A stretch of DNA of 64,000 nucleotides from Deltaproteobacteria bacterium (GCA_019310975.1 JAFDDH010000010.1:1375-65374); one strand, 5' to 3'; shown: positions 9,657 through 38,346, counted from the first letter of the stretch. The notes: a model not told the origin generated them from the letters alone. Program-made: numbers and translations.

Positions 9657-9662
9657 CGCCGC

Positions 9663-9691
9663 ATTATATGGCCGGCCACGAGTCCCTACAA
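9663..9691 (-). promoter_or_regulatory. near-consensus sigma70-type promoter directly abutting the GT-C start codon
   Basis: The minus strand reads TTGTAG-N17-TATAAT. The TATAAT ends 6 nt before GTG 9656. This is unusual in such GC-rich DNA. Confidence 0.35.
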
Positions 9692-9713
9692 GAAGCCGGA
9701 TCTGGGCCTTCCT

Positions 9714-22020: not shown

Positions 22021-22254
22021 TCAGTTGCAGCCGCAGCCCCCGCCCCCGCCCCCGCCAGGCGGCAGCGAGCCCTCTTTGCTGAAGCGGATGTGATTCTGAA
22101 GTGCCGCGGCCTGCGGGTCGGGATCCCAGAGCATGTCGGCCCTCGCCAGTGTGTCCCGCTCCCAGGGCTTCACGGCCACGCAGCCCGACGTCGCGCCGAT
22201 CAGTGCGATCCCGATCGCGACTGCGATCCAGTCTCCCCTGCGAGCGCGCATCAT
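22021..22254 (-). CDS. DUF4266-like small lipoprotein with Gly7-CGCN C-terminus
   Basis: ATG 22254 overlaps the tlpA-like stop (ATGA). Lipobox IGATSGC. Ends ...PPGGGGGGGCGCN. Its stop abuts the start of the next gene. Confidence 0.75.
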   Translation of the reverse strand: MMRARRGDWIAVAIGIALIGATSGCVAVKPWERDTLARADMLWDPDPQAAALQNHIRFSKEGSLPPGGGGGGGCGCN

Positions 22255-22775
22255 TTCCTCTCCAGCCACTTGCGGACCTCGGCCCTGATCTTCTTCATGT
22301 CCCCGTCGCGGTAGCCCTTGTGGACGACGCGAACGACACCATCGCGATCGATGAGATACGAGGTCGGCATCGTCTCCAGCCCGTATCGGTCCGGTAGTGC
22401 GCCCTGCGGATCGCTGCCGCTCGGGTATCCGACGGGATTGCGGGCGAGGAACTTGAGTGCCTTCTTCTTGTCCTCGTCGAGGTTCACCGCGACGATCTGA
22501 AACTCGCCGGCTGGCATCTGCTTGCGGAGCTCTTCGAGCTCGGGCAGCGAGCTCAGGCAGGGCGGGCACCAGGAAGCCCAGAAGTCCAGCCATACGACCT
22601 TGCCCCGGTGGCTCTGCAGTGAGACATCGCCCTTGCCATCGAGTGATGGAAGGCTGAAGCCCGGGGCTTTGTCGCCCGGTTCCAACGCCACTGCCGCCTC
22701 TGCGATCAGGGCGCAGCCGAGAACGACCACCACGATCGTGGCCAGAACACCCGGCTTCGATTGGCATCGGATCAT
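22251..22775 (-). CDS. TlpA/ResA-family periplasmic thiol:disulfide oxidoreductase (membrane anchored)
   Basis: ATG 22775 with a GGAG RBS. TM anchor VLATIVVVVLGCALI. Active site WASWCPPC. Confidence 0.9.
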   Translation of the reverse strand: MIRCQSKPGVLATIVVVVLGCALIAEAAVALEPGDKAPGFSLPSLDGKGDVSLQSHRGKVVWLDFWASWCPPCLSSLPELEELRKQMPAGEFQIVAVNLDEDKKKALKFLARNPVGYPSGSDPQGALPDRYGLETMPTSYLIDRDGVVRVVHKGYRDGDMKKIRAEVRKWLERK

Positions 22776-22875
22776 CGAAGCGTCTCCACTTGCGCGCGGA
22801 CCTGCACGTGGAGGCGAGCCCACGCTGCTCTCTCATCGTCGCGACTGCGTGCTTCGATGAGTCGATTCTCGTTCT

Positions 22876-25257
22876 TCAGGAGGCCGCGTCGCGAGTCGTC
22901 GGCGGCGCTGCGGCCCGGATGGAATCCACGACGACGCCGATGCTCAGCAGCTCCGGTAGCACCTGGGGCCGCTCTGGGGAGCTCGGGTCGTAGACGAGGT
23001 AGAGGGGCACGCCCGCGCGTCCATGGCGGGCGAGCTCCGCGCGGATCGTCTCGTCACGCTGGGTCCAGTCGGCCCTGAGGACGCGTACGTTCAGTCGCTC
23101 GAGCTCGGCGAGCACGCGCGAGTCTCGCAGCACGACAGTCTCGTTCAGCTTGCACGTGATGCACCACTCCGCCGAGAAGGCCACCAGCACCGGCCGACCT
23201 TCCTCGAGTGCCGCGCTGACCTGCCCGGGACTCCACGCCGCCCAGCCCTCGGCACTCTCGCCCGGCAGCGGTGGTGTCGCGGTCGCGAGTCGCGCGCGAA
23301 CCAGATCGAGCCCCACCAGGGCGAGCAGAACCAGCGCGATTCCGGCGCTGGTGCGCAGCCAGGTGCGCTCCCCGTGCTGGAGCATTCCGTAGATCCACAA
23401 TCCGAAGGCGATCGCGACCAGCAGCGCCAGCAGGGTCGTCATGCCTTCGGTGCCCGAGAGCCCCCCGGCGATCCAGAGCAACCACACCACCGTGGCCAGC
23501 AGCGCAAAGCCCAGCCCGGACCGCAGCTTGAGCATCCACGCTCCCGAGCGCGGCACAAAGCGCGACCAGGCGGGCACCCAACTGATGAGCACGAAGGGCG
23601 CTGCGAGGCCGGCACCGATACAGAGAAAGATCAGGACGATGGTGAGTGCCGAGCCCGCGAACGCGAAGCCCACGGCCGTCCCCAGGAAGGGCGCCGAGCA
23701 GGGCGTTGCGAGCACGACTGCCAATAGGCCCTCGAAGAAGCTGCGCCGCGTGCCCGTGGTCTGTTCGCCCAGGCGCGCGGCTCCCCCCGCGTCGAAGCTG
23801 ATCTCGAAGACGCCGAAGAGATTGAGTGCGAAGGTGACCAGCACGATCGAGATGGCAGACACGAAGAGCGGCGATTGGAATTGGAACCCCCAGCCCACCT
23901 GGCCGCCGGCTGCCCGCAGCGCGAGCACCGCTCCCGCCAGCACAGCCATGGAAATGAGGATCCCGAGCGCGTAGGCGCCACCGCTCCGGCGCAGCGCGCT
24001 CCGATCGCGGCCGGCCATCTCGGCGATGCCGAAGACCTTGATGGCCAGGACCGGCAGCACGCAGGGCATCAGGTTCAGGATCAGCCCGCCGAGCAGCGCG
24101 AGCAGGATGACCTCTAGCAGACTCGGGCTGGAGTGGATCGCCACCCCCCCGGCCGGGTCTTCGTGCACGCCCGGAAGCCAGTGCTCTCCGAGCAGCGTGA
24201 CCTGCGCGCTCGCGTCGATGGATGGCAGGGGCAGGTCCACGTCCACGTGGGCGCGACGGCCGGAGAGGTCCTGCAGGACGAGCACGCCGCGCAGACGCGG
24301 CTCGGATGTCGCGGCACTCTCGTCTGCTCCTTCCCAGTCTTCGCTCACCTCGGCCTCGAAGCCGGCGAGCGAATGGTGCGGATCGTCTCTGGTGGGCAAC
24401 GCGGCTGCCGGCTCGGCACGGATCGGGAAAGTGGCGGCGGGAAAGAAGACGACGCCCTCGGCTGCGATTCGCCAGGGCACGCACTCGCCCGGCGTCGTGC
24501 AGGCGCGTGCTCCGATGGCGGCGTGAAAGGTCGATCCCGGTCGCAGCGCACTACGGTCGTAGAGCGATTCGAGCTCGACGCCGAGGCTCGCCGGTGCCAC
24601 AGGTACCCGCGCCTCGAAGTCGTCGAAGATCCGGCTGAGGCTGGCGTTGTCGGGTGAATCGACCAGCGCGGCGGTCAGCGAGCGCTCCAGCTCGATGCGT
24701 GCGGGAATGCACTCGCGCTGGCAGATCAGCAGGTCGATGTCGACGGCGATGCGGTGCTCGCGATCGAATTCCGGTGCGAGCGTGACATCGCTGGCCAGCA
24801 ACACACGCCCCTCGTAGCCGAAGGTGACGAAGAGGCCGTCGGCCTCGCTGAAGCTCTGCGGAGCGGGCCAGCGCAGCGCTCCCGCCTCGCCGCCTTCGAC
24901 CCTCCAATGCACCCGTGTCGGCAGCCCCGTGTCGCCAGAATTGCGCCAGTAGAGGTGCCAGCCCGGGTCGAGATCGAAGAGGACGCCGACGCGAACCAAG
25001 TCGGGCGTGGCCCGGCCCGCATCCACGAGAAGGTGCGCCCGCAACCGGGCCCCGCCCTCGTAATGACCGCTCTCACCGCTCGCTCCGGCGGGAAGCGCAC
25101 GCAGCACGCTCGAGGAAGCAGTGGCCGCCCGGAGCTGCGATCCGCCCAGAGCGAAGAGCCATGCAACCAGGAAGACGAGTATGCGGCCGGCTCGCCCTGC
25201 GGCGGCCGGGCCGGGCTTCCTCTCTTCTTCGTCCGCTTCTTCCGGTATCCGCTTCAT
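22876..25257 (-). CDS. dsbD: thiol:disulfide interchange protein DsbD/ScsB-type (N-terminal DsbD-alpha-like, CcdA-like TM core, C-terminal thioredoxin)
   Basis: ATG 25257 (MKRIPEE). Motifs: GWHLYWRNSGDTGLPT and ICQRECIP (alpha domain), LMPCVLPVL and ATPCSAPFLG (TM cysteines), AEWCITCK (thioredoxin). Confidence 0.9.
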   Translation of the reverse strand: MKRIPEEADEEERKPGPAAAGRAGRILVFLVAWLFALGGSQLRAATASSSVLRALPAGASGESGHYEGGARLRAHLLVDAGRATPDLVRVGVLFDLDPGWHLYWRNSGDTGLPTRVHWRVEGGEAGALRWPAPQSFSEADGLFVTFGYEGRVLLASDVTLAPEFDREHRIAVDIDLLICQRECIPARIELERSLTAALVDSPDNASLSRIFDDFEARVPVAPASLGVELESLYDRSALRPGSTFHAAIGARACTTPGECVPWRIAAEGVVFFPAATFPIRAEPAAALPTRDDPHHSLAGFEAEVSEDWEGADESAATSEPRLRGVLVLQDLSGRRAHVDVDLPLPSIDASAQVTLLGEHWLPGVHEDPAGGVAIHSSPSLLEVILLALLGGLILNLMPCVLPVLAIKVFGIAEMAGRDRSALRRSGGAYALGILISMAVLAGAVLALRAAGGQVGWGFQFQSPLFVSAISIVLVTFALNLFGVFEISFDAGGAARLGEQTTGTRRSFFEGLLAVVLATPCSAPFLGTAVGFAFAGSALTIVLIFLCIGAGLAAPFVLISWVPAWSRFVPRSGAWMLKLRSGLGFALLATVVWLLWIAGGLSGTEGMTTLLALLVAIAFGLWIYGMLQHGERTWLRTSAGIALVLLALVGLDLVRARLATATPPLPGESAEGWAAWSPGQVSAALEEGRPVLVAFSAEWCITCKLNETVVLRDSRVLAELERLNVRVLRADWTQRDETIRAELARHGRAGVPLYLVYDPSSPERPQVLPELLSIGVVVDSIRAAAPPTTRDAAS

Positions 25258-25649
25258 GGTTTTGGGGGGGCGTCCAGCATCGTCGATCGCATGGTCGCAC
25301 GTCTCGAAGTATCGACGCCCATCGGTCTGAACATGTGATCTTTGACCATACGCACCTCGCCCGGCCATGGATACAAGCGCGCCGTGGATCCGATCGGTCT
25401 CTGCGTTGCCGACGACGTGCCGATGGGTTGCGCATGAAACGCTTGCTCGAGAGGCGAAGCTGAATCGAAGCGACCGGAAGTGTAGGAGAAAGACCCAAGA
25501 GTGTGACACAACACACCGATACGAGGCGTGCTGACCCGATATCTCTCTCGGACCGCGACGGCACCGACCTCGGTTTCGGCGTGGACGGCGTCGATGCTGC
25601 GAGGCGGGGCCCGGGTCGAGCCGTTGGTGCGAAGCGGAGTGAATAGAAT

Positions 25650-26909
25650 ATGATGGCAAGCCCCGACCGGATCCCGGCGCCCTTGCGCCGTCTCGGCGGC
25701 CTCGAGAGATTCACGTACATGCTCGTCCTGGCGGCTGCCCTCGCGGTGCTCCCGCTGGTGGCGAGCGCAGGCTCGCAGGAGCGCGCCAAGCGCATCCACG
25801 ATCGCCTCGTGGGCATCCCGCCGGATGCCCCCACGCTCGCGACCATGGTGTCGATCCTCGACACCCAGACCCCCGAAGAGGGGCCCAAGGCCGCGGCCCT
25901 CTTCGCCCTCGAGCATCCCGTCTTCTACACGTCGACGCTGAAGAACTTCGCGGCGCCGTGGACGAATGTCGATCAGACGGTCTTCGTGCCGCTGAACGAC
26001 TACTCGGCCACCGTGATCGGGATGATTCGCGACGAGGTGCCCTTCAATACGGTGCTCAGCGCGGATCTCGTCTATCACGGTGCCAACGGAGTCGTGGCGA
26101 ATCGCTACTCGCATGACAACAACCACCACTACGAGCAGCTCGAGGCCGACCATATCGACCTCAGCGATACCAGCGACTTCATCGGGCGGCCCCAATCGAC
26201 GCTGCCCGGTAGCCAGCTCTCCGGCGGCAACACCGCCGGCGTGATCACCACGCGTGCGGCGGGCGAGGCGTACTTCAGTGCCGGCACCAATCGCCGCATG
26301 TGGCGTTTTACCGCAATGAACTTTCTGTGCCGAGATATGGAGGACCTGCTCGACACGAGCTTGACCTCGGATTGGATCCGGCAGGACGTGACGAGGAGCC
26401 CGGGTGGGGATAGCTCGATCTTCCTGAACTCCTGCATCGGTTGCCACAACGGAATGGATCCGATGGCGGGCGCGTACGCGTACTTCGAGTGGGTGCCCGG
26501 GGACGACGCCGACGCCGACGACAACGGCCGTGTGATCCACACCCTGGGCCAGGTCCAGCCCAAGTACCTCATCAACGGCAACATCTTTCCCTTCGGCTAC
26601 GTGACGACCAGCAATCGTTGGGAGAATCGCTGGCTCGAAGGCAAGAACTCGGTGATGGGCTGGCCGGCCGCACCGAAGGAGGGCTTCGGCGCGAAGGGGC
26701 TCGGCGTGGCGGTGGGCAATAGCGATGCGTTCGCGACCTGCCAGGTCGAGAAGGTCTTCAAGCAGATCTGCTTTCGCGAGGACTCCAGCGACCCGGACCG
26801 CACCCTGATCAGCACAGTTACCGAGAATTTCAAGGCCAACGACTACAACCTGAAGCACGTCTTTGCCGAGGTCGCCGCCTATTGCACGCAGGCCGACGCC
26901 ACCAATTGA
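25650..26909 (+). CDS. exported protein of unknown function with single CxxCH motif (DUF1588/PSCyt-like signature)
   Basis: Hydrophobic leader MLVLAAALAVLPLVASA. CIGCH at 26433-26447 followed by GMDPMAG. Protein-like composition, in contrast to antisense ORF 25254..27020. Confidence 0.75.
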   Translation: MMASPDRIPAPLRRLGGLERFTYMLVLAAALAVLPLVASAGSQERAKRIHDRLVGIPPDAPTLATMVSILDTQTPEEGPKAAALFALEHPVFYTSTLKNFAAPWTNVDQTVFVPLNDYSATVIGMIRDEVPFNTVLSADLVYHGANGVVANRYSHDNNHHYEQLEADHIDLSDTSDFIGRPQSTLPGSQLSGGNTAGVITTRAAGEAYFSAGTNRRMWRFTAMNFLCRDMEDLLDTSLTSDWIRQDVTRSPGGDSSIFLNSCIGCHNGMDPMAGAYAYFEWVPGDDADADDNGRVIHTLGQVQPKYLINGNIFPFGYVTTSNRWENRWLEGKNSVMGWPAAPKEGFGAKGLGVAVGNSDAFATCQVEKVFKQICFREDSSDPDRTLISTVTENFKANDYNLKHVFAEVAAYCTQADATN

Positions 26910-27018
26910 TGATCGTCGAGCGACGGCGATGCAGCCGTGCGGGGATCGACTACCGCGGAGGGGTATTCGCGGGGATCGCGGAATGATGGAACCAACCGAA
27001 CCAAAGGGACACTCCAGC

Positions 27019-29178
27019 ATGAAGATCCGAAAGGCCAGTGGACTCGTACTGCTGCTGCTCTCGGTGGGCTTGCTGGCCGCCTGCGGTGATTACTCGGGCG
27101 GCGACAGGCCTCCGGCGGATCCCTTCGCGACGACCGGCGTCCTGCCGACCGGCATCACCGAGGCGGAGAATATTCAATTCTTCAGCGAGACCGTCTGGCC
27201 GATCGTGAATAGCGAGACCTGCGGCGACTGCCACACCCAGTCGGGCGGGAAGCCCTTCCCCTTCGCAGACCCGAATCTCACCTTCGCGTACCGGACCATC
27301 GTCGACAACGGCAAGGTGAACTTCGGTACGCCCTCCGATTCACGCATCGTCGTGAAAGTCGTCGGTGGACACCACTGCTGGAGCGGTGATTGCTCGTCGG
27401 ACGCGATTGATCTCTTGTTGGCCATGGAAGATTGGATCGCCCGCATCGAGGCAGCGGGCGGCAGCTCTTCGGGCGGTACCGAGGTGGGTGCCGGGACCCT
27501 GGTCAGTCAAACGGTCGACCCAAGGCCTGCTCCGCTTGGCGACGGCGTCGAGGACGAGGGGGGCGCGCGCGTCCTGAACAACCTCATCGCCTTCTACCGA
27601 TTCGACGAGTACGACCCGGACACAATCATCACGACCGCCCAGGATACCAGCGGCGTCCCGCCCGCCATGGACATCGAGTTGGAGGCGGGCGTCGCCCTGA
27701 TGGAGTCCTACGGGGTCGACTTCTCGGCCGGACGTGCGCGGGCTGAGACCAATGGAAGCCGGAAGCTCTACGACCACATCGGCCATCCGGACCTGGGCAC
27801 GGGTCAGTTCAGTATCGAGATGTGGATGGCCCCTGCGAATACGAACCAGGAAGCGCGAATGTTTGCCTTCTCGGACAACTTCCAGCTGATTCAGCAAGAG
27901 TATCAATATCAGTTTCGTGTGCGCAGTCTCGCGCCGAACATCCCGGGCAACGGCTCGGTCGGCACGCTGACGACATACGACCAGGACCGCGATCTGCAAG
28001 CCGGTCTGCAGCACACCGTTGTCACCTACGACCGATTCAACGGCATGCGGGTCTTCGTGAACGGCGAGTACACCGACGATGTGGATGCAAATGGGGGCGG
28101 TCTGCTCTGGAACTGGCGCGAGGATAGGCGGTTGGAGCTCGGCTCCACGGGTGCCGACGGCTGGTATGGCAAGATCAAGATGCTGGCCATCTACAAGCAG
28201 GTGCTCAGCCTCGAGCAGATTCGCCAGAACTGGCAGGCAGGTGTCGGTCTTCGGCTGACTCTCCGATTCGACATCAGTCAATTTGGTGGACCGGGCAGCG
28301 CGATCGAGATCTCGCTCTCGCAGATCGACGATCAGAGCTATCTGCTCTGCCAGCCGACGGTGATCACCGACAATCTCGGCATGAAGATCAGGGGTCTTCG
28401 GATCAAGGCGAACGGCACGGAGACGGGTGTGGGCCAGGCATTCTCACGCCTGAACACGATCGTCACGAGCAACCGCCAGCAGATCTCACCGCATTGCACG
28501 ATGTTGGCGAACGACTCGGGACCGGAGAACTTCCAGCTTGCCTTCGAGGGGCTCTCGGGCTGGATCGATCCGATTCCCGACGTGGATTGGGGCGAGATCC
28601 AGTACGACTACACGGGCGTCGAGATGCCGCCGACCAACGGCATGCGCGACTTCGCGCGGGTCAACGAGACGATGGCGCTGCTCACGAATGTGCCCACCGC
28701 CGATTCCGTCATCGAGGCGACCTATTTGACGCTGGTCCAGCAGCTTCCGGGCAGCGCAGATCTCAGATCCTTCGTGAGCTCCAACCAGGTCGGCATCTCG
28801 AAGTTGGGCTTCTCGTACTGCAACGAGTTGGTAGAAGATCCGGCTGGGCGGGATGTCTTCTTTGATCAGGGCCCGGCGCCGATCGAGTGGAGCCAGCTGC
28901 CCGCGGACGCCTTCCTGAACGACGTCAGCGAGGACAGGCGATTGCGTGTCACGGGTCCGCTGGTGGACAAGATGGTGGGCGATCTCAGCGTACAACCGGC
29001 CCCGGGTGACGTGGAGAATAGGCTCCTCACACTGATGGACGATCTGATGGTCGCCAAGGCGGCGGATTGCACGGACTGCGGTGGAGGCTGCAACGCGTGC
29101 ACCGACCAGGCGACCAAGGACATCGTGAAGGGTGTCTGCACCGCGGTTCTGGCCAGCGGCGCAGCCCAGATGCATTAG
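27019..29178 (+). CDS. lipoprotein with PSCyt-like CxxCH N-domain, LamG (concanavalin-like) domain and Cys-rich C-terminus
   Basis: ATG 27019 (MKIRKASGLVLLLLSVGLLAAC is a lipobox leader). CGDCH at 27220-27234. LamG-like FSIEMWMAP...GMRVFVNGEY. CTDCGGGCNAC near the end. Confidence 0.8.
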   Translation: MKIRKASGLVLLLLSVGLLAACGDYSGGDRPPADPFATTGVLPTGITEAENIQFFSETVWPIVNSETCGDCHTQSGGKPFPFADPNLTFAYRTIVDNGKVNFGTPSDSRIVVKVVGGHHCWSGDCSSDAIDLLLAMEDWIARIEAAGGSSSGGTEVGAGTLVSQTVDPRPAPLGDGVEDEGGARVLNNLIAFYRFDEYDPDTIITTAQDTSGVPPAMDIELEAGVALMESYGVDFSAGRARAETNGSRKLYDHIGHPDLGTGQFSIEMWMAPANTNQEARMFAFSDNFQLIQQEYQYQFRVRSLAPNIPGNGSVGTLTTYDQDRDLQAGLQHTVVTYDRFNGMRVFVNGEYTDDVDANGGGLLWNWREDRRLELGSTGADGWYGKIKMLAIYKQVLSLEQIRQNWQAGVGLRLTLRFDISQFGGPGSAIEISLSQIDDQSYLLCQPTVITDNLGMKIRGLRIKANGTETGVGQAFSRLNTIVTSNRQQISPHCTMLANDSGPENFQLAFEGLSGWIDPIPDVDWGEIQYDYTGVEMPPTNGMRDFARVNETMALLTNVPTADSVIEATYLTLVQQLPGSADLRSFVSSNQVGISKLGFSYCNELVEDPAGRDVFFDQGPAPIEWSQLPADAFLNDVSEDRRLRVTGPLVDKMVGDLSVQPAPGDVENRLLTLMDDLMVAKAADCTDCGGGCNACTDQATKDIVKGVCTAVLASGAAQMH

Positions 29179-29199: not shown

Positions 29200-30744
29200 A
29201 TGACGCGACGAAAGAGCGACCCGACTGTGCTTGCGCCCCTCCGCCACAACAGCCATCGGCGACCGGTGACGCGGCGCGAGTTCCTCGCCCAGGGATTCCT
29301 GACGGGGTCCGCGTATGTGGCCATGCCGGCCGTCCTCTCGCTGCTCACACAGCCGAGGTCGGCGCTGGCGGCGATGGATTGTGCGCTCGGCGGCGGAACA
29401 GGGAATATCCCCTTCCTCTGCTTTGATCTGGCGGGCGGTGCGAACATTGCCGGCTCGAACGCAATGGTGGGGACCACCGCACAGATGGCACCGCTCTCGC
29501 TGAGCGGTTACCGGATGCTCGGTCTGCCGGAGGAGCTGACCCCCGGCCGCATTGTCGGCCCCGCCATCAACGATGAATTCGGTCTCAAATTCCATCCCGA
29601 TAGTGCGATGCTACGCGGGATGCTGGCCCGGACTTCGGCCACTACGCGCGCGAATGTCAACGGTGTCGTGATCGCGGCACGCTCCGCGAACGACACGGGA
29701 AACAATCCCCACAACCCGGTCTACGGCATCAACAAGGCCGGTGCGAGCGGCGGCCTGCTCGAGCTCGTGGGTACGGAGGCCTCCGATTCGGGTGGCAATT
29801 CGTTGGCGCCGATGGACATGATCGACCCCTCCAAGCGGCCGACGAAGATCGATCGTCCCTCGGATGCGCGCGGTCTCGTCGATACCGGCGAAATGGTCAA
29901 TATGCTCGGCACCACGGGTGCGGGCGACGTCATGCAGGCGATCGAGGACATCAGCAAGGACAAGATCGCGCTGATGGCCGAGGAGGAGGCCGTATCCGAC
30001 GTCGTGACCTGTGCGTACGAGCAGAGCCGGCAGCTGATCGTGGACTTCGGCGATCCCGACGCCCTCGACCCTCTGCTCGATAAGGACATTGCGGCAGGCG
30101 ATCCGCTGGACCCGAGCCTGATCCCGATCTTCGCCGATGCGAACGAAGTGAACGGCACCAGCCACTACCGCAAGACCGCCTCGGTGATGAAGCTCGTCGT
30201 CGAGGGCAAGGCGGGTGCCGGCACGATCGAGTTCGGCGGCTATGACTATCACAACAGCACCCGCACCACCGGCGAGCAGCGCGATGAGCTGGCCGGCGAA
30301 TCCATCGGGGCCGCCTTGGAGTTCGCGGCGCGGCGGAACCAGGATCTGATGATCTATGTCTTCAGCGACGGCTCCGTATTCTCGAACGGGCAGGTGGATA
30401 ATAATGTTGGCAAGGGCGTCTGGACGGGCGACAACTCGAGCACGGCGGCGTCCCTGATCCTCGTCTACGGCAAGGATGGGCGACCGCCCCTGCGCAACGC
30501 CGACAATCAGATCGGCATCTACCGAGACAGCGGCTCAGTCGAGACCTCGCATTCTCTTCCCTCGGTGCAGATCTCGAACTCGCCCGAGCTGCTCGCCGAG
30601 GCGATCGTGCTCAACTACCTCGCTCTCCACGGTCGCGAGGGTGATTATGCGAGTGTGATGAACAACGCACCCAAGCTGGCCGGCAGCGCTGCAGAGCTCG
30701 ATCAGCTGATCGGCTTCACGAATATTCGCGCGCCGGGCGTATAG
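29200..30744 (+). CDS. Tat-exported DUF1501-like (sulfatase/alkaline-phosphatase-fold-like) protein
   Basis: GGAGG RBS. Twin-arginine leader TRREFLAQGFLTGSAYVAMPA. FGGYDYHN resembles the GGWDTH motif of DUF1501. Confidence 0.8.
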   Translation: MTRRKSDPTVLAPLRHNSHRRPVTRREFLAQGFLTGSAYVAMPAVLSLLTQPRSALAAMDCALGGGTGNIPFLCFDLAGGANIAGSNAMVGTTAQMAPLSLSGYRMLGLPEELTPGRIVGPAINDEFGLKFHPDSAMLRGMLARTSATTRANVNGVVIAARSANDTGNNPHNPVYGINKAGASGGLLELVGTEASDSGGNSLAPMDMIDPSKRPTKIDRPSDARGLVDTGEMVNMLGTTGAGDVMQAIEDISKDKIALMAEEEAVSDVVTCAYEQSRQLIVDFGDPDALDPLLDKDIAAGDPLDPSLIPIFADANEVNGTSHYRKTASVMKLVVEGKAGAGTIEFGGYDYHNSTRTTGEQRDELAGESIGAALEFAARRNQDLMIYVFSDGSVFSNGQVDNNVGKGVWTGDNSSTAASLILVYGKDGRPPLRNADNQIGIYRDSGSVETSHSLPSVQISNSPELLAEAIVLNYLALHGREGDYASVMNNAPKLAGSAAELDQLIGFTNIRAPGV

Positions 30745-30870: not shown

Positions 30871-31335
30871 ATGAACGACAAGAGTCCCGGCGCACCCTCC
30901 TGGCTCTTCTCATTCGTGGACCTCGCGTTCCTGATGCTGATCGCGATGACCCAGCTCGCCCCCGACCCGAGCCGGCAGGCCCCGGATCTCGGCGAGATGG
31001 TCGTGCCGCGCATCTCCGAGAAGTCGTCGGGCGAGATGCCGGGCGACGCGGCTCGCGCCTGGCAGCTGCGCATCCACCCGCCCTCCGAGCCGGCCGCCGA
31101 GCGCTTCGAGCTCGTCCTCATCGACCCGACGGCTGCGCGGAGCTCCGAGTTCTACACCGAGGTGGGTGGCCTGCGTGAGCGGCTCGCCGAGCTGGACCGT
31201 GCATCGGGTCCGCGACCGCTGCTCGCTCCGCACGAGGATGCGCGCAGCCAGGACCTGCTGGACGCTGCGGCGCTGCTCGAAGAGTACTGGCCGGGAAGGC
31301 GGCGCGTGACGATCGCCCGCGTCTTCGACAGCTGA
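30871..31335 (+). CDS. divergent ExbD/TolR-family protein
   Basis: ATG 30871 with a GGGAG RBS. Single TM segment SWLFSFVDLAFLMLIAMT carrying the conserved Asp (30919-30921). Short periplasmic domain. Confidence 0.7.
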   Translation: MNDKSPGAPSWLFSFVDLAFLMLIAMTQLAPDPSRQAPDLGEMVVPRISEKSSGEMPGDAARAWQLRIHPPSEPAAERFELVLIDPTAARSSEFYTEVGGLRERLAELDRASGPRPLLAPHEDARSQDLLDAAALLEEYWPGRRRVTIARVFDS

Positions 31336-31336
31336 G

Positions 31337-32671
31337 ATGGGTGCCTGGCGGGTCGATCAGCACTACGGGGTGGGTGTGGCCAACGTGCGCCTCCACGCCG
31401 AGCCCTATCTACATCCAGAACGCCGCTGGACGTTGCGCGAGGGCCTCGACGCCCTGCGCGAGGATCTCCACGATCGGGACCGCAGTCTGCGTCGCGCCGT
31501 CGGCGTGCTGCCCGGAATCCTGCTCGGCACGGTCGTGCTGCTGAGCTTCGTCCTCACCGTCGTGCGCGACCGCAGCGACGACACCGGAGTCGAGCTGGTG
31601 CTGTGGACGAGTGCACCGCCGCAGCCCGAGGCGATACCCGAGCAGGCGCCGCCACCGATCCCGATCCCGAAGCCGGTTGAGCGAGCCGAGCCCGTAGAGC
31701 CCCCGCCCCTCAAGCCGGTCGCCAAGCCGATCGCCAAACCGCCGCCGCGCCCCGAGCCGATTCGCATCGCCGAGGCGCCGCCGAGGCCCGCCCCGCCGCC
31801 GCGCGCGGAGCGCCTGCGCAGGCCGCCGCCAAGGCCCGCACAGCAGCCCAGCGTGCGGATCGATTCCCTGGCGCGTGCGCCGGTGTCGCCGGCGCCGTCA
31901 CGCCCGACGCGCGGCCAGGCGCCGAAGCCACCCGCCGAGCGGTCGCAGATGGAGGTGCTCCCGATCGCGAATCGCACCCCACCGCGCGTCGAGGCGTCCT
32001 CACCGGAGCCGCGGCGCTTCGCGGCGGTGCGTCCACCGCCCTCCCGAAAAAACTCGGCGCCTGCCGTGGCGCCGGCGATCGCCGCCCTGCCGCGCTCTCC
32101 GCAGCCTGCGAACCGGGCGCCCTCGGAACGTGGGAAGAAACCAGCAGCCGTGTCTCGCACTTCGAGAGGTGCGCCTCCCAGGCCCGAGCTTGCGGCCCCA
32201 GCCAGTATCGCGACGGATCGAGCGTCCCCCGATCGACCCACGCGGAGTGCCCGAAATGCCCCTACCAAGGTGGCCCGCGGCAGTGGCCCACGGCCCGACG
32301 TGCGCATGGCCGGCGTCTCGCACACGACGCAGTCGCCGGCGTCGCCCTCGATCGCCCCGATGCGCTCCGGCGTCGCCCCGCTTCGCCCCAGCGCCTCGAG
32401 GCCTGTCCGCGAGCAGCCCGGCCTGGCGGGTGTACCCCTGGGATCGCTCGCCAGCTGTCTGTCGGATCGGCAGGAGGATGCCCTCAAGCAGCGCGTCGTG
32501 GCTGCCGTTAGGACGCAGGAGCAGTGTGTAAGCCGCGCCGGAAGCTACCGATTCATCGAGACAAAGAACCTGAATTCATTCCTCATGTGGGTCGATCGGG
32601 CGCCGACGCGCACGCATGGGGACCGCTGCGACGAGCTCAGGCTCGCACTCGAGTGCCTCGCGTCGCAGTGA
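31337..32671 (+). CDS. TonB/TolA-like anchor: one N-terminal TM, long Pro-rich spacer, novel 4-Cys C-terminal domain
   Basis: ATG lies 1 nt after the exbD-like stop. TM segment VLPGILLGTVVLLSFVLTVV. (P-x)n tract PPPIPIPKPVERAEPVEPPPLKPVAKPIAKPPPRPEP. Caveat: Pro-rich frames arise easily in GC-rich DNA. Confidence 0.6.
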   Translation: MGAWRVDQHYGVGVANVRLHAEPYLHPERRWTLREGLDALREDLHDRDRSLRRAVGVLPGILLGTVVLLSFVLTVVRDRSDDTGVELVLWTSAPPQPEAIPEQAPPPIPIPKPVERAEPVEPPPLKPVAKPIAKPPPRPEPIRIAEAPPRPAPPPRAERLRRPPPRPAQQPSVRIDSLARAPVSPAPSRPTRGQAPKPPAERSQMEVLPIANRTPPRVEASSPEPRRFAAVRPPPSRKNSAPAVAPAIAALPRSPQPANRAPSERGKKPAAVSRTSRGAPPRPELAAPASIATDRASPDRPTRSARNAPTKVARGSGPRPDVRMAGVSHTTQSPASPSIAPMRSGVAPLRPSASRPVREQPGLAGVPLGSLASCLSDRQEDALKQRVVAAVRTQEQCVSRAGSYRFIETKNLNSFLMWVDRAPTRTHGDRCDELRLALECLASQ

Positions 32672-32691
32672 ATCAAGGAGTCGCACGCCGG

Positions 32692-34389
32692 ATGGAGAAT
32701 CAGCCTCGACACGAGAGCGTCGCGTGCAAGCTCACGACGATCGGCGCGTTCATCGCGACCACACTCGTCGCTGGAATCGCGAGCGCACAGATCGCCGCCA
32801 TCGATACCGCCCGCTGGGATGGCTACCTCGACTACGCGTACGTCTACGCCTCAGCCAACGCGGACGCATTGCGGACGCGAATCGACGATTACGGCCGCGA
32901 GGCCGGCATGACGCTCGACGAGTACGTGACGGTGGTATCCACGGACGTGCGCGCCAAGCCCGAGGCGGTCGACGACGCCCTTCGCCGCCGCCTGGCCATC
33001 GCCAACCTCTTGCAATACCTGGCGACGCGCGAGCCGCAGGCGCTGGACCGCAGCGTCGAGCTCATCAACGAGTTCGAGGAGCAGCAGGGCCGGCACCAGA
33101 ATCTCTATTGGTACCACTACATCCACTCGAATCGCGCGCTCGAGAAGGGCAGCGGCAGCGAGTTCACACGGCACACCCTCCAGCTCTGGTTGCAGGTCGT
33201 GGTGCCGCTCGAGAGCCCGTACGAGACCCTGCAGGCGCTCTCACTCAGTCAGTCGGCCAATTCCGGCTTCGTCTCGGCCCTGCCCTACGTGTACGAGAAC
33301 GTGGCGCGCATCGTGTTGATCCGCAGCCAGGAGATGGGCATCCGCCGCGATCTCGATCCCCTCTCCGCCATCGTACGAATGTTGGCCCAGGGACGTGTCG
33401 GCGCACACCCGGATGTGATCCCCTACGAGGCCTCATCGAAGCAGTATCTGGATCGCATCATCGCGCGCCTGGATGGGCCCGAGTCCGACGCCGGCAGCCT
33501 GACCTTCACCCTCGTACTTTTCGAGGCCGGCAAGTACCACGACCATGCGCGCTCCCTGCTCGCCAGCGAGGGACTCTCGAAGGCGACCATCGAGGCCATC
33601 GGCGTATCGAGCGGCGCCTACCAGACGGCGCTGAATCTCGCGCATACGCTGCAGGGCCAGAGCGCCGTCTACGCCAGGGTGCTGCGTCAGCTCGGTGAGG
33701 TATGGGCCGCCAAGCAGCGTCTCGGTGTCGACCCTTACGTGGAGGCGCCCTTCACCATCGATGGGGCGATGAGGGTGTGGCGCGAGCTCTACAGCGTGCA
33801 CGCCGAGGGCGAATGGAAGCAGGTCGGCTTCCGCAACACCGGTTACGAGTCCTATGTATTGTCGATGCAGACGCTCTGGCAGGAGATCCAGGAGTCGAGC
33901 CTCAACGCCGCCGACTACTACCTGACGCGCAGCATCACCGATCCAGCTCGCAGCGACGAGCACATCCGCTCCGCGGCGCGGACTTATCTGCGCTATCTGG
34001 CATTTTTCGACCAGCATTCGACCGAGCAGGCCGCCGAATTCGTGCCCGACGCCGCCTACTTCGCCGCCTACGAGGCCGCCAAGGGCTACGGTGACGCGTT
34101 CCTCGCCTACGCGGGCGGGCAGACCACGGCCACCGAGGTGGATACCGCGGTGGAGCGCTACCTGATGGCACTCGGCATCTTCCCCTTTGATCGCCATCTC
34201 TGGCCCGGCTATGCGTCGGCACTCGAGCGCCAGGGCCGAGCAAACCAATACCTCGCCAAGGTGCGACCGATTGCCGAGTCGGTGGCGCGCTCGCGCCACG
34301 TCGACGCGTGGATTCAGGCCGGCGAGCCCGGCGGCCCGTGCGGAGATCGAACGTCGGATCCTGCAGCTTTCGGGCAAGCTTCCCGCTGA
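32692..34389 (+). CDS. large exported helical-repeat protein of unknown function (apparently frameshifted near 34330)
   Basis: ATG 32692 with an AAGGAG RBS. Signal-like TTIGAFIATTLVAGIASAQ. Helix-rich composition. The last ~20 codons (GPCGDRTSDPAAFGQASR) look non-native. Confidence 0.7.
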   Translation: MENQPRHESVACKLTTIGAFIATTLVAGIASAQIAAIDTARWDGYLDYAYVYASANADALRTRIDDYGREAGMTLDEYVTVVSTDVRAKPEAVDDALRRRLAIANLLQYLATREPQALDRSVELINEFEEQQGRHQNLYWYHYIHSNRALEKGSGSEFTRHTLQLWLQVVVPLESPYETLQALSLSQSANSGFVSALPYVYENVARIVLIRSQEMGIRRDLDPLSAIVRMLAQGRVGAHPDVIPYEASSKQYLDRIIARLDGPESDAGSLTFTLVLFEAGKYHDHARSLLASEGLSKATIEAIGVSSGAYQTALNLAHTLQGQSAVYARVLRQLGEVWAAKQRLGVDPYVEAPFTIDGAMRVWRELYSVHAEGEWKQVGFRNTGYESYVLSMQTLWQEIQESSLNAADYYLTRSITDPARSDEHIRSAARTYLRYLAFFDQHSTEQAAEFVPDAAYFAAYEAAKGYGDAFLAYAGGQTTATEVDTAVERYLMALGIFPFDRHLWPGYASALERQGRANQYLAKVRPIAESVARSRHVDAWIQAGEPGGPCGDRTSDPAAFGQASR

Positions 34390-34438
34390 CGACCCGGCGC
34401 CGGCGTCGATCGCGGATGACGCCGGAGAACGCGAGAGC

Positions 34439-34645
34439 GTGGTCGAGCGGGCGGAGCGGCATCGGAAGATCGAAGAGGCCAAGCTGCTGCTCGACAAGCT
34501 CGACAAGCAGCTCGAGGCCCGCAAGCGGGCATTGCCCCTCTATCAGGAGACCCTCCAGACCGATGGCCTGATCGACGAGCTGCGCGCCCAGCGCGATCAC
34601 CCGGCCCACACGCTGCTGCGCCGCTTCTATTACGAGAAGCGCTAA
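34439..34645 (+). CDS. coiled-coil segment, either the frameshifted 3' end of 32692-34389 or a 68-aa stand-alone ORF
   Basis: The +1 frame shows good coding character from about 34331 (ARAEIERRILQLSGKLPADD...KIEEAKLLLDKLDKQLEARKRALPLYQE...RRFYYEKR). The first usable start in that frame is GTG 34439. Confidence 0.4.
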   Translation: MVERAERHRKIEEAKLLLDKLDKQLEARKRALPLYQETLQTDGLIDELRAQRDHPAHTLLRRFYYEKR

Positions 34646-35247
34646 TGAGGACGTCCCCCATGAACCGAGAGAACGAAGAGCCGACCCTGGAGATGTGCAC
34701 GCTGCGAGCACGAAGAAGCCGCCTTGGCCTCTCTGCGCTGCTCGTGGTCGCGGCGCTGCTCGCCACCGCGTGTTCGGGCGTGCGCCCCGCCTATCAGACC
34801 ACCAACCAGCGCGAGCTCTCCGTCGAGGAGGCGCCGCTCGGCGGCGAGGCGCTCAGCCAGCGCAAGCAGGATCTGGAGCGCGCGCTCGGGGATATGGCGG
34901 CCTTCCATGCCACGATGGCGAGCCTCATCGATCGTCGCGATGGCCGGGGGCTCTCGGCCTTCGACGATTTCGTGGCCGCCTATATGGGCGAGCACCTGGA
35001 TCCGCTGCTGGCCGGCGAATGGCAGAGCAGTCATCCCGAGGTGATGGCCGTGGACGCCAATCTGCGCTTCACCAAGGCCGACGTGCTGATCCAGATGCGC
35101 TACCCGCGCCGCGTGCAGCGAGTCATCGACGATATCGAGCGCCGCTATGAGAGTCACGGGAATATGGTCGTCGACTACCCGTTGGGTGACCAGAACTCGA
35201 TCACCGACGCACTCGAGATCCTCAAGAACCGGAAGTGGGAGGGGTAG
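34645..35247 (+). CDS. lipoprotein of unknown function
   Basis: TAATG stop/start overlap at 34645. Lipobox LLATAC. Alternative start ATG 34693. Confidence 0.7.
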   Translation: MRTSPMNRENEEPTLEMCTLRARRSRLGLSALLVVAALLATACSGVRPAYQTTNQRELSVEEAPLGGEALSQRKQDLERALGDMAAFHATMASLIDRRDGRGLSAFDDFVAAYMGEHLDPLLAGEWQSSHPEVMAVDANLRFTKADVLIQMRYPRRVQRVIDDIERRYESHGNMVVDYPLGDQNSITDALEILKNRKWEG

Positions 35248-35249
35248 AA

Positions 35250-35900
35250 ATGGAATCGGAATTCCTGAATGCGATCACGCCGAGCGACGACGTCCTCACC
35301 TGGCTCGTCACACTCTTCGCGCTCGTCGCGGTATGGTTGCCCTTCTTTCGCGGCTTGAAGCTCTCCCTGCAGGCGTGGACGGCCACACGCCACTGCACGT
35401 CGGGCGAGCTGCGCAAGGGGAGGGCGGATACACGCGGGACCGACGTCGAGCCCATCGCGCTCTTGATGATGCGGGTCCTGAAGAAGGCGTTGAACGAGAA
35501 CGAGGCGGAGCGCCACCCCCGCGACTTCATATTCGATGCCACGCGGCAGTATGTGATCAACGAGTACGATGACCACTACACACGGCTGATCGGCATGTAT
35601 GCGAGCCTGCTTCCGCCGATCGGGTTCATTGGGACGACCGGCGGCATGTTGATCCTCTTCCTCTCGATGCACTTTGACAACTCGTCCCTGGAGCTCGGCG
35701 CCCTCGCCATCGCGCTGACATCGAGCATCTTCGCCCTGGTCGGCTACTCGGTGCTCGAGGGTCTGAAGATCCGCCTATATGGACGCTTGCTCCACTGTCT
35801 GCGCGACGTCCATGACCTCTACCAGGAGGCCGACCGCAAGCGCACAGGTCGGCAGTCGGATGGGGCCGCAGGCATGACGCCGGAGCCGGGTCTGGCTTAG
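35250..35900 (+). CDS. MotA/TolQ/ExbB-family proton-channel protein
   Basis: ATG 35250 after a GGGAGGGG RBS. LPPIGFIGTTGGMLILF and ALAIALTSSIFALVGYSVL match the TolQ/ExbB TM2-TM3 signatures. Confidence 0.8.
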   Translation: MESEFLNAITPSDDVLTWLVTLFALVAVWLPFFRGLKLSLQAWTATRHCTSGELRKGRADTRGTDVEPIALLMMRVLKKALNENEAERHPRDFIFDATRQYVINEYDDHYTRLIGMYASLLPPIGFIGTTGGMLILFLSMHFDNSSLELGALAIALTSSIFALVGYSVLEGLKIRLYGRLLHCLRDVHDLYQEADRKRTGRQSDGAAGMTPEPGLA

Positions 35901-35999
35901 CTCCGTCTCCCGATGGGCCGGGTCGCGCCGCCCGAATTGGGGCATACTCCGCTTCGAGGATCCGGGATGTTCCGGTGCCGACCGAGGAGTGGAAGAGTC

Positions 36000-36350
36000 A
36001 TGAGCAAGTCGATCCAGCTCGTCACCAGCACGATGATCATCGTGGGCCTGCTGCTCGCCGGTGTGCCGGCCGCGGCCATCGAGTCCAGCGTCTCGCCGGC
36101 ACTGCACGACCCGGCCGAGCCCGATGGCATTACGTGGTACGAGGTGGTCCCCCCCTACGCGATGAATGCGCGCGATACGGTCGATCTGGAGGAGCACGGC
36201 GGCTGGTCGGGCGAGTACGTATTCGGCATGACGAAGGGATTGATGCGGTCGACGCTCGTGCCGGCCCTGAAGCCGGTCTTCCTGATCTTCACCGTGCCCT
36301 TGGATCTCGTCTTCCTGCCCTTTGCGGCCATCGGCGGGTTCTTCCGCTGA
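36000..36350 (+). CDS. small exported/membrane protein of unknown function
   Basis: ATG 36000 with a GGAG-rich RBS. N-terminal signal/TM segment IIVGLLLAGVPAAAIE and C-terminal TM segment LIFTVPLDLVFLPFAAIGGFF. Confidence 0.6.
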   Translation: MSKSIQLVTSTMIIVGLLLAGVPAAAIESSVSPALHDPAEPDGITWYEVVPPYAMNARDTVDLEEHGGWSGEYVFGMTKGLMRSTLVPALKPVFLIFTVPLDLVFLPFAAIGGFFR

Positions 36351-36351
36351 C

Positions 36352-37728
36352 TCAACGCGGCGAGGTCACCACCACGGCCGCGTAGCCGCCTGGCTGCAGG
36401 GTGACGGTCTTTGCGATGCTGTCGGCGCCGCCGCTGCCAAGCATCACCTCTATTTCGTGTTGGCCGGCGGGTAGCCGTTCGCGGAAGACGAAGACCTGCT
36501 CGGGCAGGTGCATCCAGGAGCGGGTATCCGGCTTGTCCATCGCCACCATGACCGCCTCCGTGAGGAGCGCGAGCGCCCAGCCCAATCCCGCGCTCTGCTG
36601 GTTGCCGGCCTGGCGGACGCCCTCGGAGGCGGCGGCGCGGACGATCATTCGTGAGATGGCCGCGCCGATGATCCGGGGCTTGATCTCTTCGTACTCGCGT
36701 GTGATTTCGGCGCCGAGGTCGGAGGCCAGCTCGAGCTGTGCGGGGCGGTCGTCAATGCGCAGCCGGACCTTGTCGTAGACACTGCCGTTCGGGACGAGCT
36801 CCGGGTAGACGACGAATTTCATCGCCGTGTGGCCGAGCACTTCGGGGTTGCCGCTGATCCATGCGCCGGCCATGCCCACCGCCGCACCGATGGGTATGCG
36901 TTTCGGGACCTTGAAGGGGACGCGCCCGACGCTCACGACCACGAGCAGGTCGGCAGCACCCTCCCTTTCCTCTTCGGCCGCGCCTTGCGCCAACACCTGA
37001 GCGAGCATCTTGCCTCGAAACGAGGTCATCGGGGCGAGCCGCCGAATCGGTGCACCCAACGATTCGAAACGCTGCGCCTGCAGGGCCTCGTCGTAGTAGC
37101 GAATGGCACCCTGCCATTCGCCGAGCATTTCGAAGGTGAAGCCCGCCAGGTAGGATCCGATGGCGACGTGAACCTCCTCGATGCCGCTGTTCTCGAGGTA
37201 GGTCTGCATGACGGTGAAGCGGCGCGCCTCGACCCGCGAGCCGCGCAGATCCCCGTTGGCGAGGAAGTTCGCCATATTGAAGGAATTAAGGGAGAGCTTC
37301 TCGGTGGGTGTGGCCTGGTAGAGGGTCGCGCTGTCGCTGTAGACGTAGCGGCCGATATTGCCGGCCGTGTCGTCCGTCAGGTCGAGCACCTGGAGCTCGC
37401 GATCGGCGACGATGAAGTCCCGCGAGCTCCCGGGGTAGTCGAAGAGCGCCTGCTCGAGTGTGCCCCGCTCGAGCAGGCCGAGCGCCGTCTCGGATTCGAT
37501 CTTTTCGGGCATCTGCCCACGCTGGCCGACACCCATGATCTTCTCGACCTTGGTGATGCTTGCCTCGAAGTCGCCGGCCGTCGTCGTCTCCATGACCTTG
37601 GCCATCTTGTCCGAGTAGGTCGCACAACCCGACGAGAAGGGCGCCATCAGCGCGAGCAATACGAGAAGAGCACGCACGCGTGCTCCCCCACCTCGCAGCG
37701 GTGTGGTCAGGCCGGAGCGGCTGGACAT
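36352..37728 (-). CDS. large lipoprotein of unknown function (partner of LpoB-like gene)
   Basis: ATG 37728. Lipobox APFSSGC. 458 aa with protein-like composition. Separated by 9 nt from the upstream gene. Confidence 0.8.
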   Translation of the reverse strand: MSSRSGLTTPLRGGGARVRALLVLLALMAPFSSGCATYSDKMAKVMETTTAGDFEASITKVEKIMGVGQRGQMPEKIESETALGLLERGTLEQALFDYPGSSRDFIVADRELQVLDLTDDTAGNIGRYVYSDSATLYQATPTEKLSLNSFNMANFLANGDLRGSRVEARRFTVMQTYLENSGIEEVHVAIGSYLAGFTFEMLGEWQGAIRYYDEALQAQRFESLGAPIRRLAPMTSFRGKMLAQVLAQGAAEEEREGAADLLVVVSVGRVPFKVPKRIPIGAAVGMAGAWISGNPEVLGHTAMKFVVYPELVPNGSVYDKVRLRIDDRPAQLELASDLGAEITREYEEIKPRIIGAAISRMIVRAAASEGVRQAGNQQSAGLGWALALLTEAVMVAMDKPDTRSWMHLPEQVFVFRERLPAGQHEIEVMLGSGGADSIAKTVTLQPGGYAAVVVTSPR

Positions 37729-37737
37729 TTCGCGGAT

Positions 37738-38346
37738 TCAGCCCTTGAGTGCCTTGCTGCGCGTGGTCTCGTGTTGGAACTTCACCAGACCCGTCTCGAG
37801 CTCGATGATCTGCAGGAAGAGTGTGTACTGGAGCCGGCGCGTTTTCTGCAGCCGCTCGTCCACGGCCGTGAGCTTGCCGGTGATGAAGTACTTCGCCCCG
37901 AGCTGGCGACCGAGCCGAGCCGCGCCACCGGGGTCGTAGATGGCGCCCTGCTGGATGCCGATCTCGCGGGCGAGCTCGGCCTGGCGGGAGCGGGCGACGA
38001 TCTGTACGTCACCGCTGTTGATCAGGCTGGTCTCGATGGACGAGAGCAGCGTCAGCATCTGATCCTCGAGATGCTCGGATGTCGCATTCTCGATCGGCCA
38101 GATCGCCATGATCGGCGGCCTGGCAGCCGTCTCCACCTCGCCCCTCCAGAAGCGGGAATCGAAGAGCGCGTCCAGATTGCGATCCACCAGGAAGGTGATG
38201 TCGCTGCGATCGAGCGTGGTGGACATGGCGGGTGCGTCCATGTTGGGGTTCTCGGTCCCCTCGCCGCCCCGCATTGCTCTGGGCGCGCAGGCCAGCGAGA
38301 AAGCGACGAGGACGAGGAGCATTGCCGTGAGGAGCTGCCGGATCAT
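37738..38346 (-). CDS. LpoB-like lipoprotein (penicillin-binding-protein activator family fold)
   Basis: Lipobox AFSLAC. IWPIENATSEHL...LGAKYFITGKL...LFLQIIELETGLV parallels E. coli LpoB (NSTN..., GAHYVLY, LQMQLMLVQTGEIIW). Confidence 0.8.
   Translation of the reverse strand: MIRQLLTAMLLVLVAFSLACAPRAMRGGEGTENPNMDAPAMSTTLDRSDITFLVDRNLDALFDSRFWRGEVETAARPPIMAIWPIENATSEHLEDQMLTLLSSIETSLINSGDVQIVARSRQAELAREIGIQQGAIYDPGGAARLGRQLGAKYFITGKLTAVDERLQKTRRLQYTLFLQIIELETGLVKFQHETTRSKALKG

Follow-up and report, generated by a model that had tools for sequence, protein, structure and literature searches.

A conserved five-gene module for a candidate divergent envelope machine of the Ton/Tol/Agl class, with a cyclically rotated gene order in one bacterial lineage

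The window analysed here is a 64,000-nucleotide (nt) stretch of DNA from a bacterium deposited as a deltaproteobacterium (GCA_019310975.1, JAFDDH010000010.1:1375-65374). Positions 30871-35900 of its + strand hold five close-packed, co-directional genes, here called A to E, which probably constitute a single operon. It would encode a divergent machine of the kind that the proton motive force powers in the cell envelope, as in Ton, Tol-Pal and Agl-Glt. In several bacterial lineages the five families are inherited together, and the module that they form is a genuine variant of the Ton/Tol/Agl class that is conserved but has so far escaped annotation; its permuted order in the window is likewise real, but derived. 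What is directly supported is the topology of the proteins, their conserved residues, their co-inheritance and, from modelling, the fold of C. A first-pass annotation of the window had proposed a distinct machine of this class, and the proposal is supported, as the candidate channel and plug subunits (E and A, respectively) fall outside the canonical clade and the gene order is conserved beyond this assembly.

The genes follow each other with hardly any space between them (Table 1). A single nucleotide separates the TGA stop codon of A, which ends at 31335, from the ATG of B at 31337, which is the 1-nt coupling of an ExbD-like gene to the gene of a Pro-rich anchor protein that had been pointed out in the first pass; among relatives, A and B frequently overlap by 4 nt. 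The TAA of gene C (34643-34645) overlaps the first ATG of D, and a 2-nt spacer lies between the stop of D and the start of E. Other landmarks of the first-pass annotation are found where it had placed them. The ExbD-like gene comes first, and its transmembrane (TM) aspartate at 30919-30921 is codon 17 (GAC), inside the only hydrophobic segment of A; the Pro-rich anchor protein, B, has 16.9% Pro overall and one TM helix, at residues 55-73; the ExbB-like channel gene at 35250-35900 starts 3.9 kb past the end of A; and a lipoprotein gene does lie between the motor genes, as the signal peptide of D ends in a lipobox-like ...LLATA-C. The protein of about 650 amino acids (aa) described for the same interval is indeed helical, judging from the structure model of a homologue, but it does not occupy a single open frame, since 119 nt are missing and a second frame runs on to 34645.

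In a scan of one genome per species, 28 loci were found, all of them in metagenome-assembled genomes (MAGs) labelled Myxococcota, Deltaproteobacteria or, probably wrongly, Spirochaetaceae. The order A-B-C-D-E is present in all 22 species-level genomes that span the region, five truncated loci agree with it as far as they reach, and none of the loci departs from it; each of the five families is single-copy per locus. Such an arrangement is far beyond chance. The MAGs that carry the module include those of loci L003, L004, L008, L009, L013, L014, L019 and L028, several of which are deposited as Spirochaetaceae or Spirochaetales; these labels are likely a taxonomic mislabel, as Myxococcota is suggested by the sister loci and by the isolate name HK-STAS-MYXO-51. 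With seven distant E-like sequences as seeds, a metagenome scan gave 80 further loci, whose orders were mapped with the round-1 family hidden Markov models (HMMs), second-iteration HMMs having been set aside because they had drifted by recruiting overlapping open reading frames in DNA of high guanine-cytosine (GC) content. Only two orders are seen among these 80 loci with the family HMMs. On 30 contigs (GC 62.6-74.6%), C stands directly before D-E, extending to A-B-C-D-E, and on 31 contigs (GC 30-65%), E stands directly before A, extending to D-E-A-B-C, which is often followed by a second C paralogue. By exact-sequence look-up, Geobacter sp. and Geomonas species are the carriers of this second type. 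In more distant lineages (L031, L033, L118 and L119) a gene for about 200 aa is followed by E-A-B-C(-like), and D-E-A-B-C, or a small protein followed by E-A-B-C, is carried by Geobacter/Geomonas and at least three other clades. The permuted order noticed in the first pass is thus shared by relatives and not unique to this assembly, with 22 of 22 spanning species genomes displaying it and 30 metagenome contigs in keeping with it.

Because the other lineages read D-E-A-B-C, the order in the window is a derived, lineage-specific and exact cyclic rotation, in which D-E has shifted from the front of the operon to its back; this rotation is fixed in one high-GC MAG lineage, mostly deposited as Myxococcota. 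In the D-E-A-B-C loci the channel gene E directly precedes the plug gene A, and this layout is probably the general and ancestral one. The two orders, taken as a pair, indicate that all five genes form one unit, and the numbers of homologues retrieved at E<=1e-3 (694 for E, 909 for A and 477 for C) are of similar size, which fits co-distribution. The order itself is probably without mechanistic meaning, given that a single lineage has fixed the rotation and that the genes are still tightly packed, translationally close and in one direction. The first-pass annotation had likened it to a circularly permuted Tol-Pal layout. The permutation is literal with respect to the module's own relatives, but not with respect to Tol-Pal, to which there is a likeness of design only.

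The topology of gene E is that of ExbB and TolQ (TM1, a cytoplasmic helical domain and a TM2-TM3 hairpin), according to alignment and to hydropathy, which places three helices at about 20-38, 125-143 and 156-174. The TM2 motif P-P-x-G-F-x-G-T-x-G-M is invariant across the E family. This invariant stretch, LLPPIGFIGTTGGM, aligns with PYIGLFGTVWG of TolQ and PFVGLFGTVWG of ExbB, its G-T falling on T145 of TolQ and T148 of ExbB, in the Pro...Gly-Thr motif that lines the channel, and TM3 carries an invariant ALTSS...LEG. Among 1.84 billion representatives, the E profile recovers 98 proteins only (E<=1e-3), which include a wider and more diverse family with the same motifs. Pfam MotA_ExbB is matched by 24 of 25 sampled members of this wider family, with a best E-value of 8.4e-10, so that the homology of E to the superfamily is transitive; a precomputed match to the same Pfam family (PF01618) is also present on some close homologues of E. 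In hhalign comparisons, for which the references were Escherichia coli K-12 proteins (TolQ, TolR, ExbB, ExbD, MotA, TonB, TolA, CpoB and Pal), the E family matches TolQ with 39% probability (E-value 3e-4, 108 columns), ExbB with 2.8% and MotA with 0.2%, against 99.7% for the control pair TolQ-ExbB; the match of E to TolQ is stronger than that of TolQ to MotA, a control pair of known homologues. Searched against PDB sequences, the E profile finds PomA only, at an E-value of about 1.

Gene A has a short cytoplasmic N-terminus, one TM helix that harbors Asp17, and a periplasmic alpha/beta domain. The helix motif APxWLFSFVDLAFLMLIAMTQ is invariant in alignments of 23 and of 37 sequences, and Asp17, itself invariant, aligns with D25 of ExbD and D32 of MotB. 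Pfam ExbD (PF02472) is matched weakly by 3 of 23 A homologues (E-value >=0.0076), and hhalign gives the A family about 1% against TolR and ExbD, with 97.8% for the control pair TolR-ExbD. In its AlphaFold2 (AF2) model, built with database homologues, the TM helix is followed by a beta-beta-beta-alpha-beta-alpha succession. It is concluded that E and A appear to have branched off deeply and separately within the ExbB/TolQ/MotA and ExbD/TolR/MotB superfamilies, and that they lie outside the TolQR/ExbBD clade, as their hhalign scores (at most 39% and about 1%, respectively) lie far under those of the TolQ-ExbB and TolR-ExbD controls. The separation of the motor proteins from the canonical clade, on which the first-pass proposal depended, is in this way borne out.

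It could be argued that these proteins are not a motor, that their likeness to ExbB and ExbD is superficial and that they belong, for instance, to a Zorya-like defence or membrane stress module, all the more so as the similarity of the window's own proteins to the canonical families is marginal. This reading is hardly credible, since PADLOC, which covers ZorA and ZorB of Zorya, has no match for eight proteins at E<=0.1, and since the wider family ties E to MotA_ExbB in the transitive manner described above. Neither the functional Asp nor the G-T motif varies, moreover, and A adjoins E in all other clades, which is typical of 5:2 motors, nearly all of which normally have the gene of their B subunit directly downstream of that of their A subunit (PMC12505986; subunit names in the sense of that paper).

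Gene B presents the three-part architecture of TonB and TolA, that is, an N-terminal TM helix, a Pro-rich linker and a small C-terminal domain. A 55-residue cytoplasmic head precedes the TM helix, the Pro/Arg/Ala-rich linker comprises some 270 residues (~90-360), and the C-terminal domain of 80 aa contains four invariant Cys. In the cytoplasmic N-terminus, a YGxG..R motif is conserved in every clade. In the low-GC locus L033, B (9051-10178) has an end domain that lacks the four Cys and looks different; with the head conserved across clades, this suggests that the transducer head is kept while the tip varies. Behind B, the same locus encodes two more secreted proteins that are large and helical (710 and 585 aa).

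The comparison with Ton (ExbB-ExbD-TonB) shows a common ground plan. Both have a three-helix channel with a P-x-G-x-x-G-T motif in TM2, a single-pass plug with a membrane-embedded Asp, and a third protein that crosses the membrane once and whose Pro-rich linker in the periplasm leads to a small C-terminal domain, and the order E-A-B of the module's relatives parallels exbB-exbD-tonB. The module differs from Ton in the low scores of E against ExbB (2.8%) and of A against ExbD (about 1%), to be set against the controls of 99.7% and 97.8%. B differs from TonB in having the four-Cys domain and the cytoplasmic YGxG motif, and neither the SHLS/His motif nor TonB_C. The module also has two extra obligate partners, C and D, no TonB-dependent receptor is linked to it, and in the window's lineage the channel gene is the last one, 3.9 kb after the plug gene. 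Non-canonical transducers beside tolQR-like motors are already known (PMC12204202). Those of the vWA type resemble B in being TolA/TonB-shaped proteins with a non-TonB end domain, and a gene for a tetratricopeptide repeat (TPR) protein often adjoins them; the end domain of the module is, however, the 80-residue four-Cys domain and not vWA, SHLS is lacking, and the partner set and the taxa are other ones.

Gene C begins at 32692 and encodes a cleavable signal peptide (...IASA/Q). The AF2 model of P0241, a 99%-identical homologue, has a pLDDT (predicted local distance difference test) of 87 and is all-alpha, a TPR-like solenoid being followed by a long coiled-coil hairpin; Foldseek and PDB profile matches of C are generic TPR superhelices and proteins, and neither Pfam nor NCBIfam has a match for any of A to D of the window. 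In the window, this gene is disrupted. According to tblastn, homology in the first frame extends to ~34335; beyond this point, 18 codons are read out of frame up to a stop at 34387-34389, while homology resumes in another frame to 34645. With respect to L117, a 99%-identical metagenome contig that encodes P0241 as an intact protein of 690 aa, exactly 119 nt are lacking at the break (34335/34336), and this deletion results in a frameshift that separates the C-terminal coiled coil from the TPR body. The window is the only one of the examined loci to have C in two pieces, a second match of the C-family HMM being unique to it, and the lesion is either strain-specific or an assembly error. In Geobacter-type loci a second and longer C paralogue, of ~860 aa, stands directly after C (L069 11987-14572; likewise L034, L043 and L096).

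The lipobox Cys of D is present in most class-1 homologues and missing from a few of them and from most Geobacter-type homologues. D thus appears to be lipid-anchored in most of the window's clade, and merely secreted in a few of its members and in most Geobacter-type homologues. It belongs to no Pfam or NCBIfam family, and hhalign against Pal reveals no similarity. In the representative library, P0444 (213 aa) looks like a D lipoprotein joined to the last TM helix and the tail of E; it may be a fusion of D and E that occurs in nature, or else the product of a frameshift or of a chimeric gene call.

Several observations weigh against the reading of the locus as an operon for such a motor. Window E scores 19.1 bits with PF01618, under the gathering score of 22.9, and although T162, S163 and S164 of its TM3 are conserved, the hhalign register puts T178 of TolQ five residues off. 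Window A has no match in Pfam, NCBIfam or a PDB profile search; its AF2 model is of moderate confidence, with a pLDDT of 60 for the whole protein and ~78 for the periplasmic domain, and a fold search with this model gives no significant match, TolR (2jwk, 5by4) appearing at ranks 9-12 with probabilities of 0.72-0.75 among generic alpha/beta folds. As for B, neither the SHLS pattern nor a His is present in its TM helix in any clade aligned, and neither Pfam, nor PDB, nor hhalign with TonB and TolA of E. coli yields a match to its end domain, which makes the coupling of B to the motor conjectural. An outer-membrane component was not identified. With gene C disrupted, the module may be impaired in the source organism, or else the assembly may be faulty.

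Of the canonical relatives of E, TolQ scores best (hhalign E-value 3e-4), and the module recalls Tol-Pal also in having a periplasmic protein with TPR and coiled coil (cf. CpoB) and a lipoprotein (cf. Pal). It has therefore to be considered whether it is the housekeeping Tol-Pal (or Ton) of its lineage, highly diverged and rearranged, with B as TolA, C as a CpoB-like and D as a Pal-like protein. The design, in which a motor is joined by a membrane-anchored protein rich in Pro, a periplasmic one with TPR and coiled coil, and a lipoprotein, is similar and would fit, and tblastn with the E. coli Tol, Exb, TonB and Pal proteins finds no canonical gene within the 64-kb window; two Pal-like matches lie in unrelated parts of other loci. 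This is nonetheless very improbable. Neither a TolB beta-propeller nor an OmpA-like, peptidoglycan-binding Pal domain was found at the locus (by tblastn in the window, hhalign of D against Pal, and Pfam on C and D), and hhalign gives no signal for D against Pal, C against CpoB, or the end domain of B against TolA and TonB, so that B, C and D are without detected sequence similarity to TolA, CpoB and Pal. C, with 690 aa, has its coiled coil at the C-terminus, whereas CpoB has 263 aa and an N-terminal one. E and A are, in addition, much farther from TolQR than ExbBD is, as measured by hhalign. The module is also present in Geobacter and Geomonas, in which a second, canonical system is expected, because Tol-Pal is reported to be conserved throughout Gracilicutes (PMC12204202) and Myxococcus xanthus has a bona fide tolQRAB-pal (PMC3169522). 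That the periplasmic parts are not homologous to those of Tol-Pal, as the first-pass annotation held, agrees with these searches, which detected no homology to TolB, Pal, TonB_C or TolA-III.

In design the module resembles, above all, Agl-Glt, more than Ton or Tol-Pal. This system of Myxococcus, which has clustered homologues in Geobacter and gammaproteobacteria (PMC3169522), likewise combines a TolQR-like motor, a Pro-rich inner-membrane transducer, large periplasmic TPR proteins and a small lipoprotein, and occurs in overlapping taxa. It has thus been weighed whether the module is related to the Agl-Glt core complex (TolQR-like motor, TonB-like GltG and the TPR proteins GltC/D/E), with a function in surface motility or in Glt/Nfs-like envelope or surface transport. 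The logic of the parts is the same, C (690 aa) is comparable to GltC (673 aa) and D (~180 aa) to the lipoprotein GltK (170 aa), and the taxa overlap in Myxococcota and in Geobacter, where the Agl-Glt core is clustered as well (PMC3169522); C and D have been compared with the Glt proteins by size and TPR nature only. Such a relationship is unlikely, since AglR, AglQ and AglS match Pfam MotA_ExbB and ExbD at 1e-15 to 1e-18 (PMC3169522, Table 1), whereas E and A of the window stay under the thresholds, and since the large AglR family is not among the 98 representatives that the E profile recovers. The composition also differs: Agl has one TolQ-like and two TolR-like subunits (AglR, AglQ and AglS), in contrast to exactly one E and one A per locus of the module, and the core complex has three TPR proteins. 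GltG bears an FHA domain and TonB_C (PMC3169522, Table 1), both lacking in B, which has no Pfam domain, and outer-membrane barrels of the GltA/B/H type are missing from the cluster.

A literature search found no paper describing the module. The more specific proposal, a tentative one, is that A-E may form a separate functional class beside Ton, Tol-Pal, Agl-Glt and Gld. The transducer of this class would be of a separate type, in which YGxG replaces SHLS and a four-Cys domain stabilised by disulfides replaces TonB_C. The class would also have obligate partners of its own, one with TPR and coiled coil and one small and helical, and an as yet undescribed envelope task, in Desulfobacterota (Geobacter, Geomonas), Myxococcota-like MAGs and further clades. 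The mechanism proposed is modelled on the 5:2 motors ExbB5-ExbD2, TolQ5-TolR2 and MotA5-MotB2 (reviewed in PMC9389320). By this analogy, a pentamer of E would form the channel around a dimer of A, and the passage of protons via Asp17 of A would drive a conformational or rotary cycle. This cycle would be handed to B, whose Pro-rich linker could span the periplasm and whose end domain, probably with two disulfides, would bind an outer partner, with C acting as a scaffold and D as a partner close to the membrane.

Directly upstream of A in the window lies a trio of genes, for the CxxCH protein g419, a LamG lipoprotein and a protein with a twin-arginine (Tat) signal (Table 1). The trio occupies this position in 17 of the 22 class-1 loci and is found in none of the other five, among them the complete chromosome locus L012; in L097 (10800-15727, - strand) it is adjacent but downstream and inverted. 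It is conceivable that, in the Myxococcota-like clade, the motor energises this trio, composed of a PSCyt/PSD-like haem protein, the LamG lipoprotein and the Tat-exported protein, for instance in envelope redox processes or uptake, and that the rearrangement put A-B-C beside it. The frequent adjacency, the CxxCH motifs, the weak PSD2/PSCyt3 matches and the DsbD gene just upstream would accord with such a role. The reading is doubtful, because the trio is missing from five class-1 loci and was not found in the Geobacter-type or other-clade loci examined, and is hence not the module's general partner; the flanks of the Geobacter-type loci are unrelated. The trio may be a lineage-specific client, and is not part of the core module.

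Farther upstream, at 20674-25659 on the - strand, a DsbD-type thiol:disulfide transporter (DsbD_N, DsbD_TM, thioredoxin-like) precedes genes for DUF4266 and DUF3570, in an orientation divergent from that of the CxxCH genes; proteins with haem motifs and four Cys here have a periplasmic redox supply beside them. A GspD-type secretin (N0, three Secretin_N domains and Secretin) is encoded at 17523-19748 on the + strand, and would indicate type II secretion or a related outer-membrane channel nearby. Downstream of E, the membrane protein F, a TPR lipoprotein and an LpoB-like lipoprotein were considered as members of the module and rejected, as they are common only to the closest relatives, L003 and L117.

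Table 1. Genes of the module and neighbouring features, in window coordinates
Feature	Coordinates	Strand	Size and basis
Gene A, ExbD/TolR/MotB-like candidate plug subunit	30871..31335	+	154 aa; TM helix, Asp17, motif conservation
Gene B, TonB/TolA-like by architecture only	31337..32671	+	444 aa; hydropathy, composition, cross-clade N- and C-terminal alignments
Gene C, 5' part, secreted all-alpha TPR-like solenoid	32692..34389	+	tblastn with intact homologues; signal peptide
Gene C, 3' part, C-terminal coiled coil, other frame	34336..34645	+	DNA alignment with L117; second C-family HMM match
Gene D, small helical periplasmic protein/lipoprotein	34645 or 34660..35247	+	~180-200 aa; signal peptide, lipobox
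Gene E, MotA/ExbB/TolQ-like candidate channel subunit	35250..35900	+	216 aa; three TM helices, TM2 motif
g419, CxxCH, weakly PSD2/PSCyt3-like (Planctomycete)	25650-26909	+	Pfam
LamG lipoprotein with CxxCH	26863-29178	+	771 aa; Pfam
Protein with twin-arginine (Tat) signal	29200-30744	+	514 aa; no Pfam or PDB match
F, two-helix membrane protein	35913-36350	+	145 aa
TPR lipoprotein	36352-37728	-	458 aa
LpoB-like lipoprotein	37738-38346	-	Pfam LpoB, 4.5e-22

To our knowledge, machines of the Ton/Tol/Mot class are the sole means of energy delivery to the periplasm and the outer membrane of diderms. Earlier new branches of this class, namely Agl-Glt, GldLM and Zorya, each revealed a new cell-biological function. 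The module presented here is conserved as hundreds of protein clusters at 90% identity, and yet it escapes naming in Pfam and NCBIfam. Surveys that rely on adjacency to find motor pairs would overlook it in the window's lineage, where the channel gene follows the plug gene at a distance of 3.9 kb. The value of the finding resides in the five-part machine more than in the gene order, the rotation being mainly evidence that the genes are one unit. As the module is present in the cultivable Geobacter and Geomonas, deletion, localisation and structure work on this candidate branch of envelope machines would be feasible.

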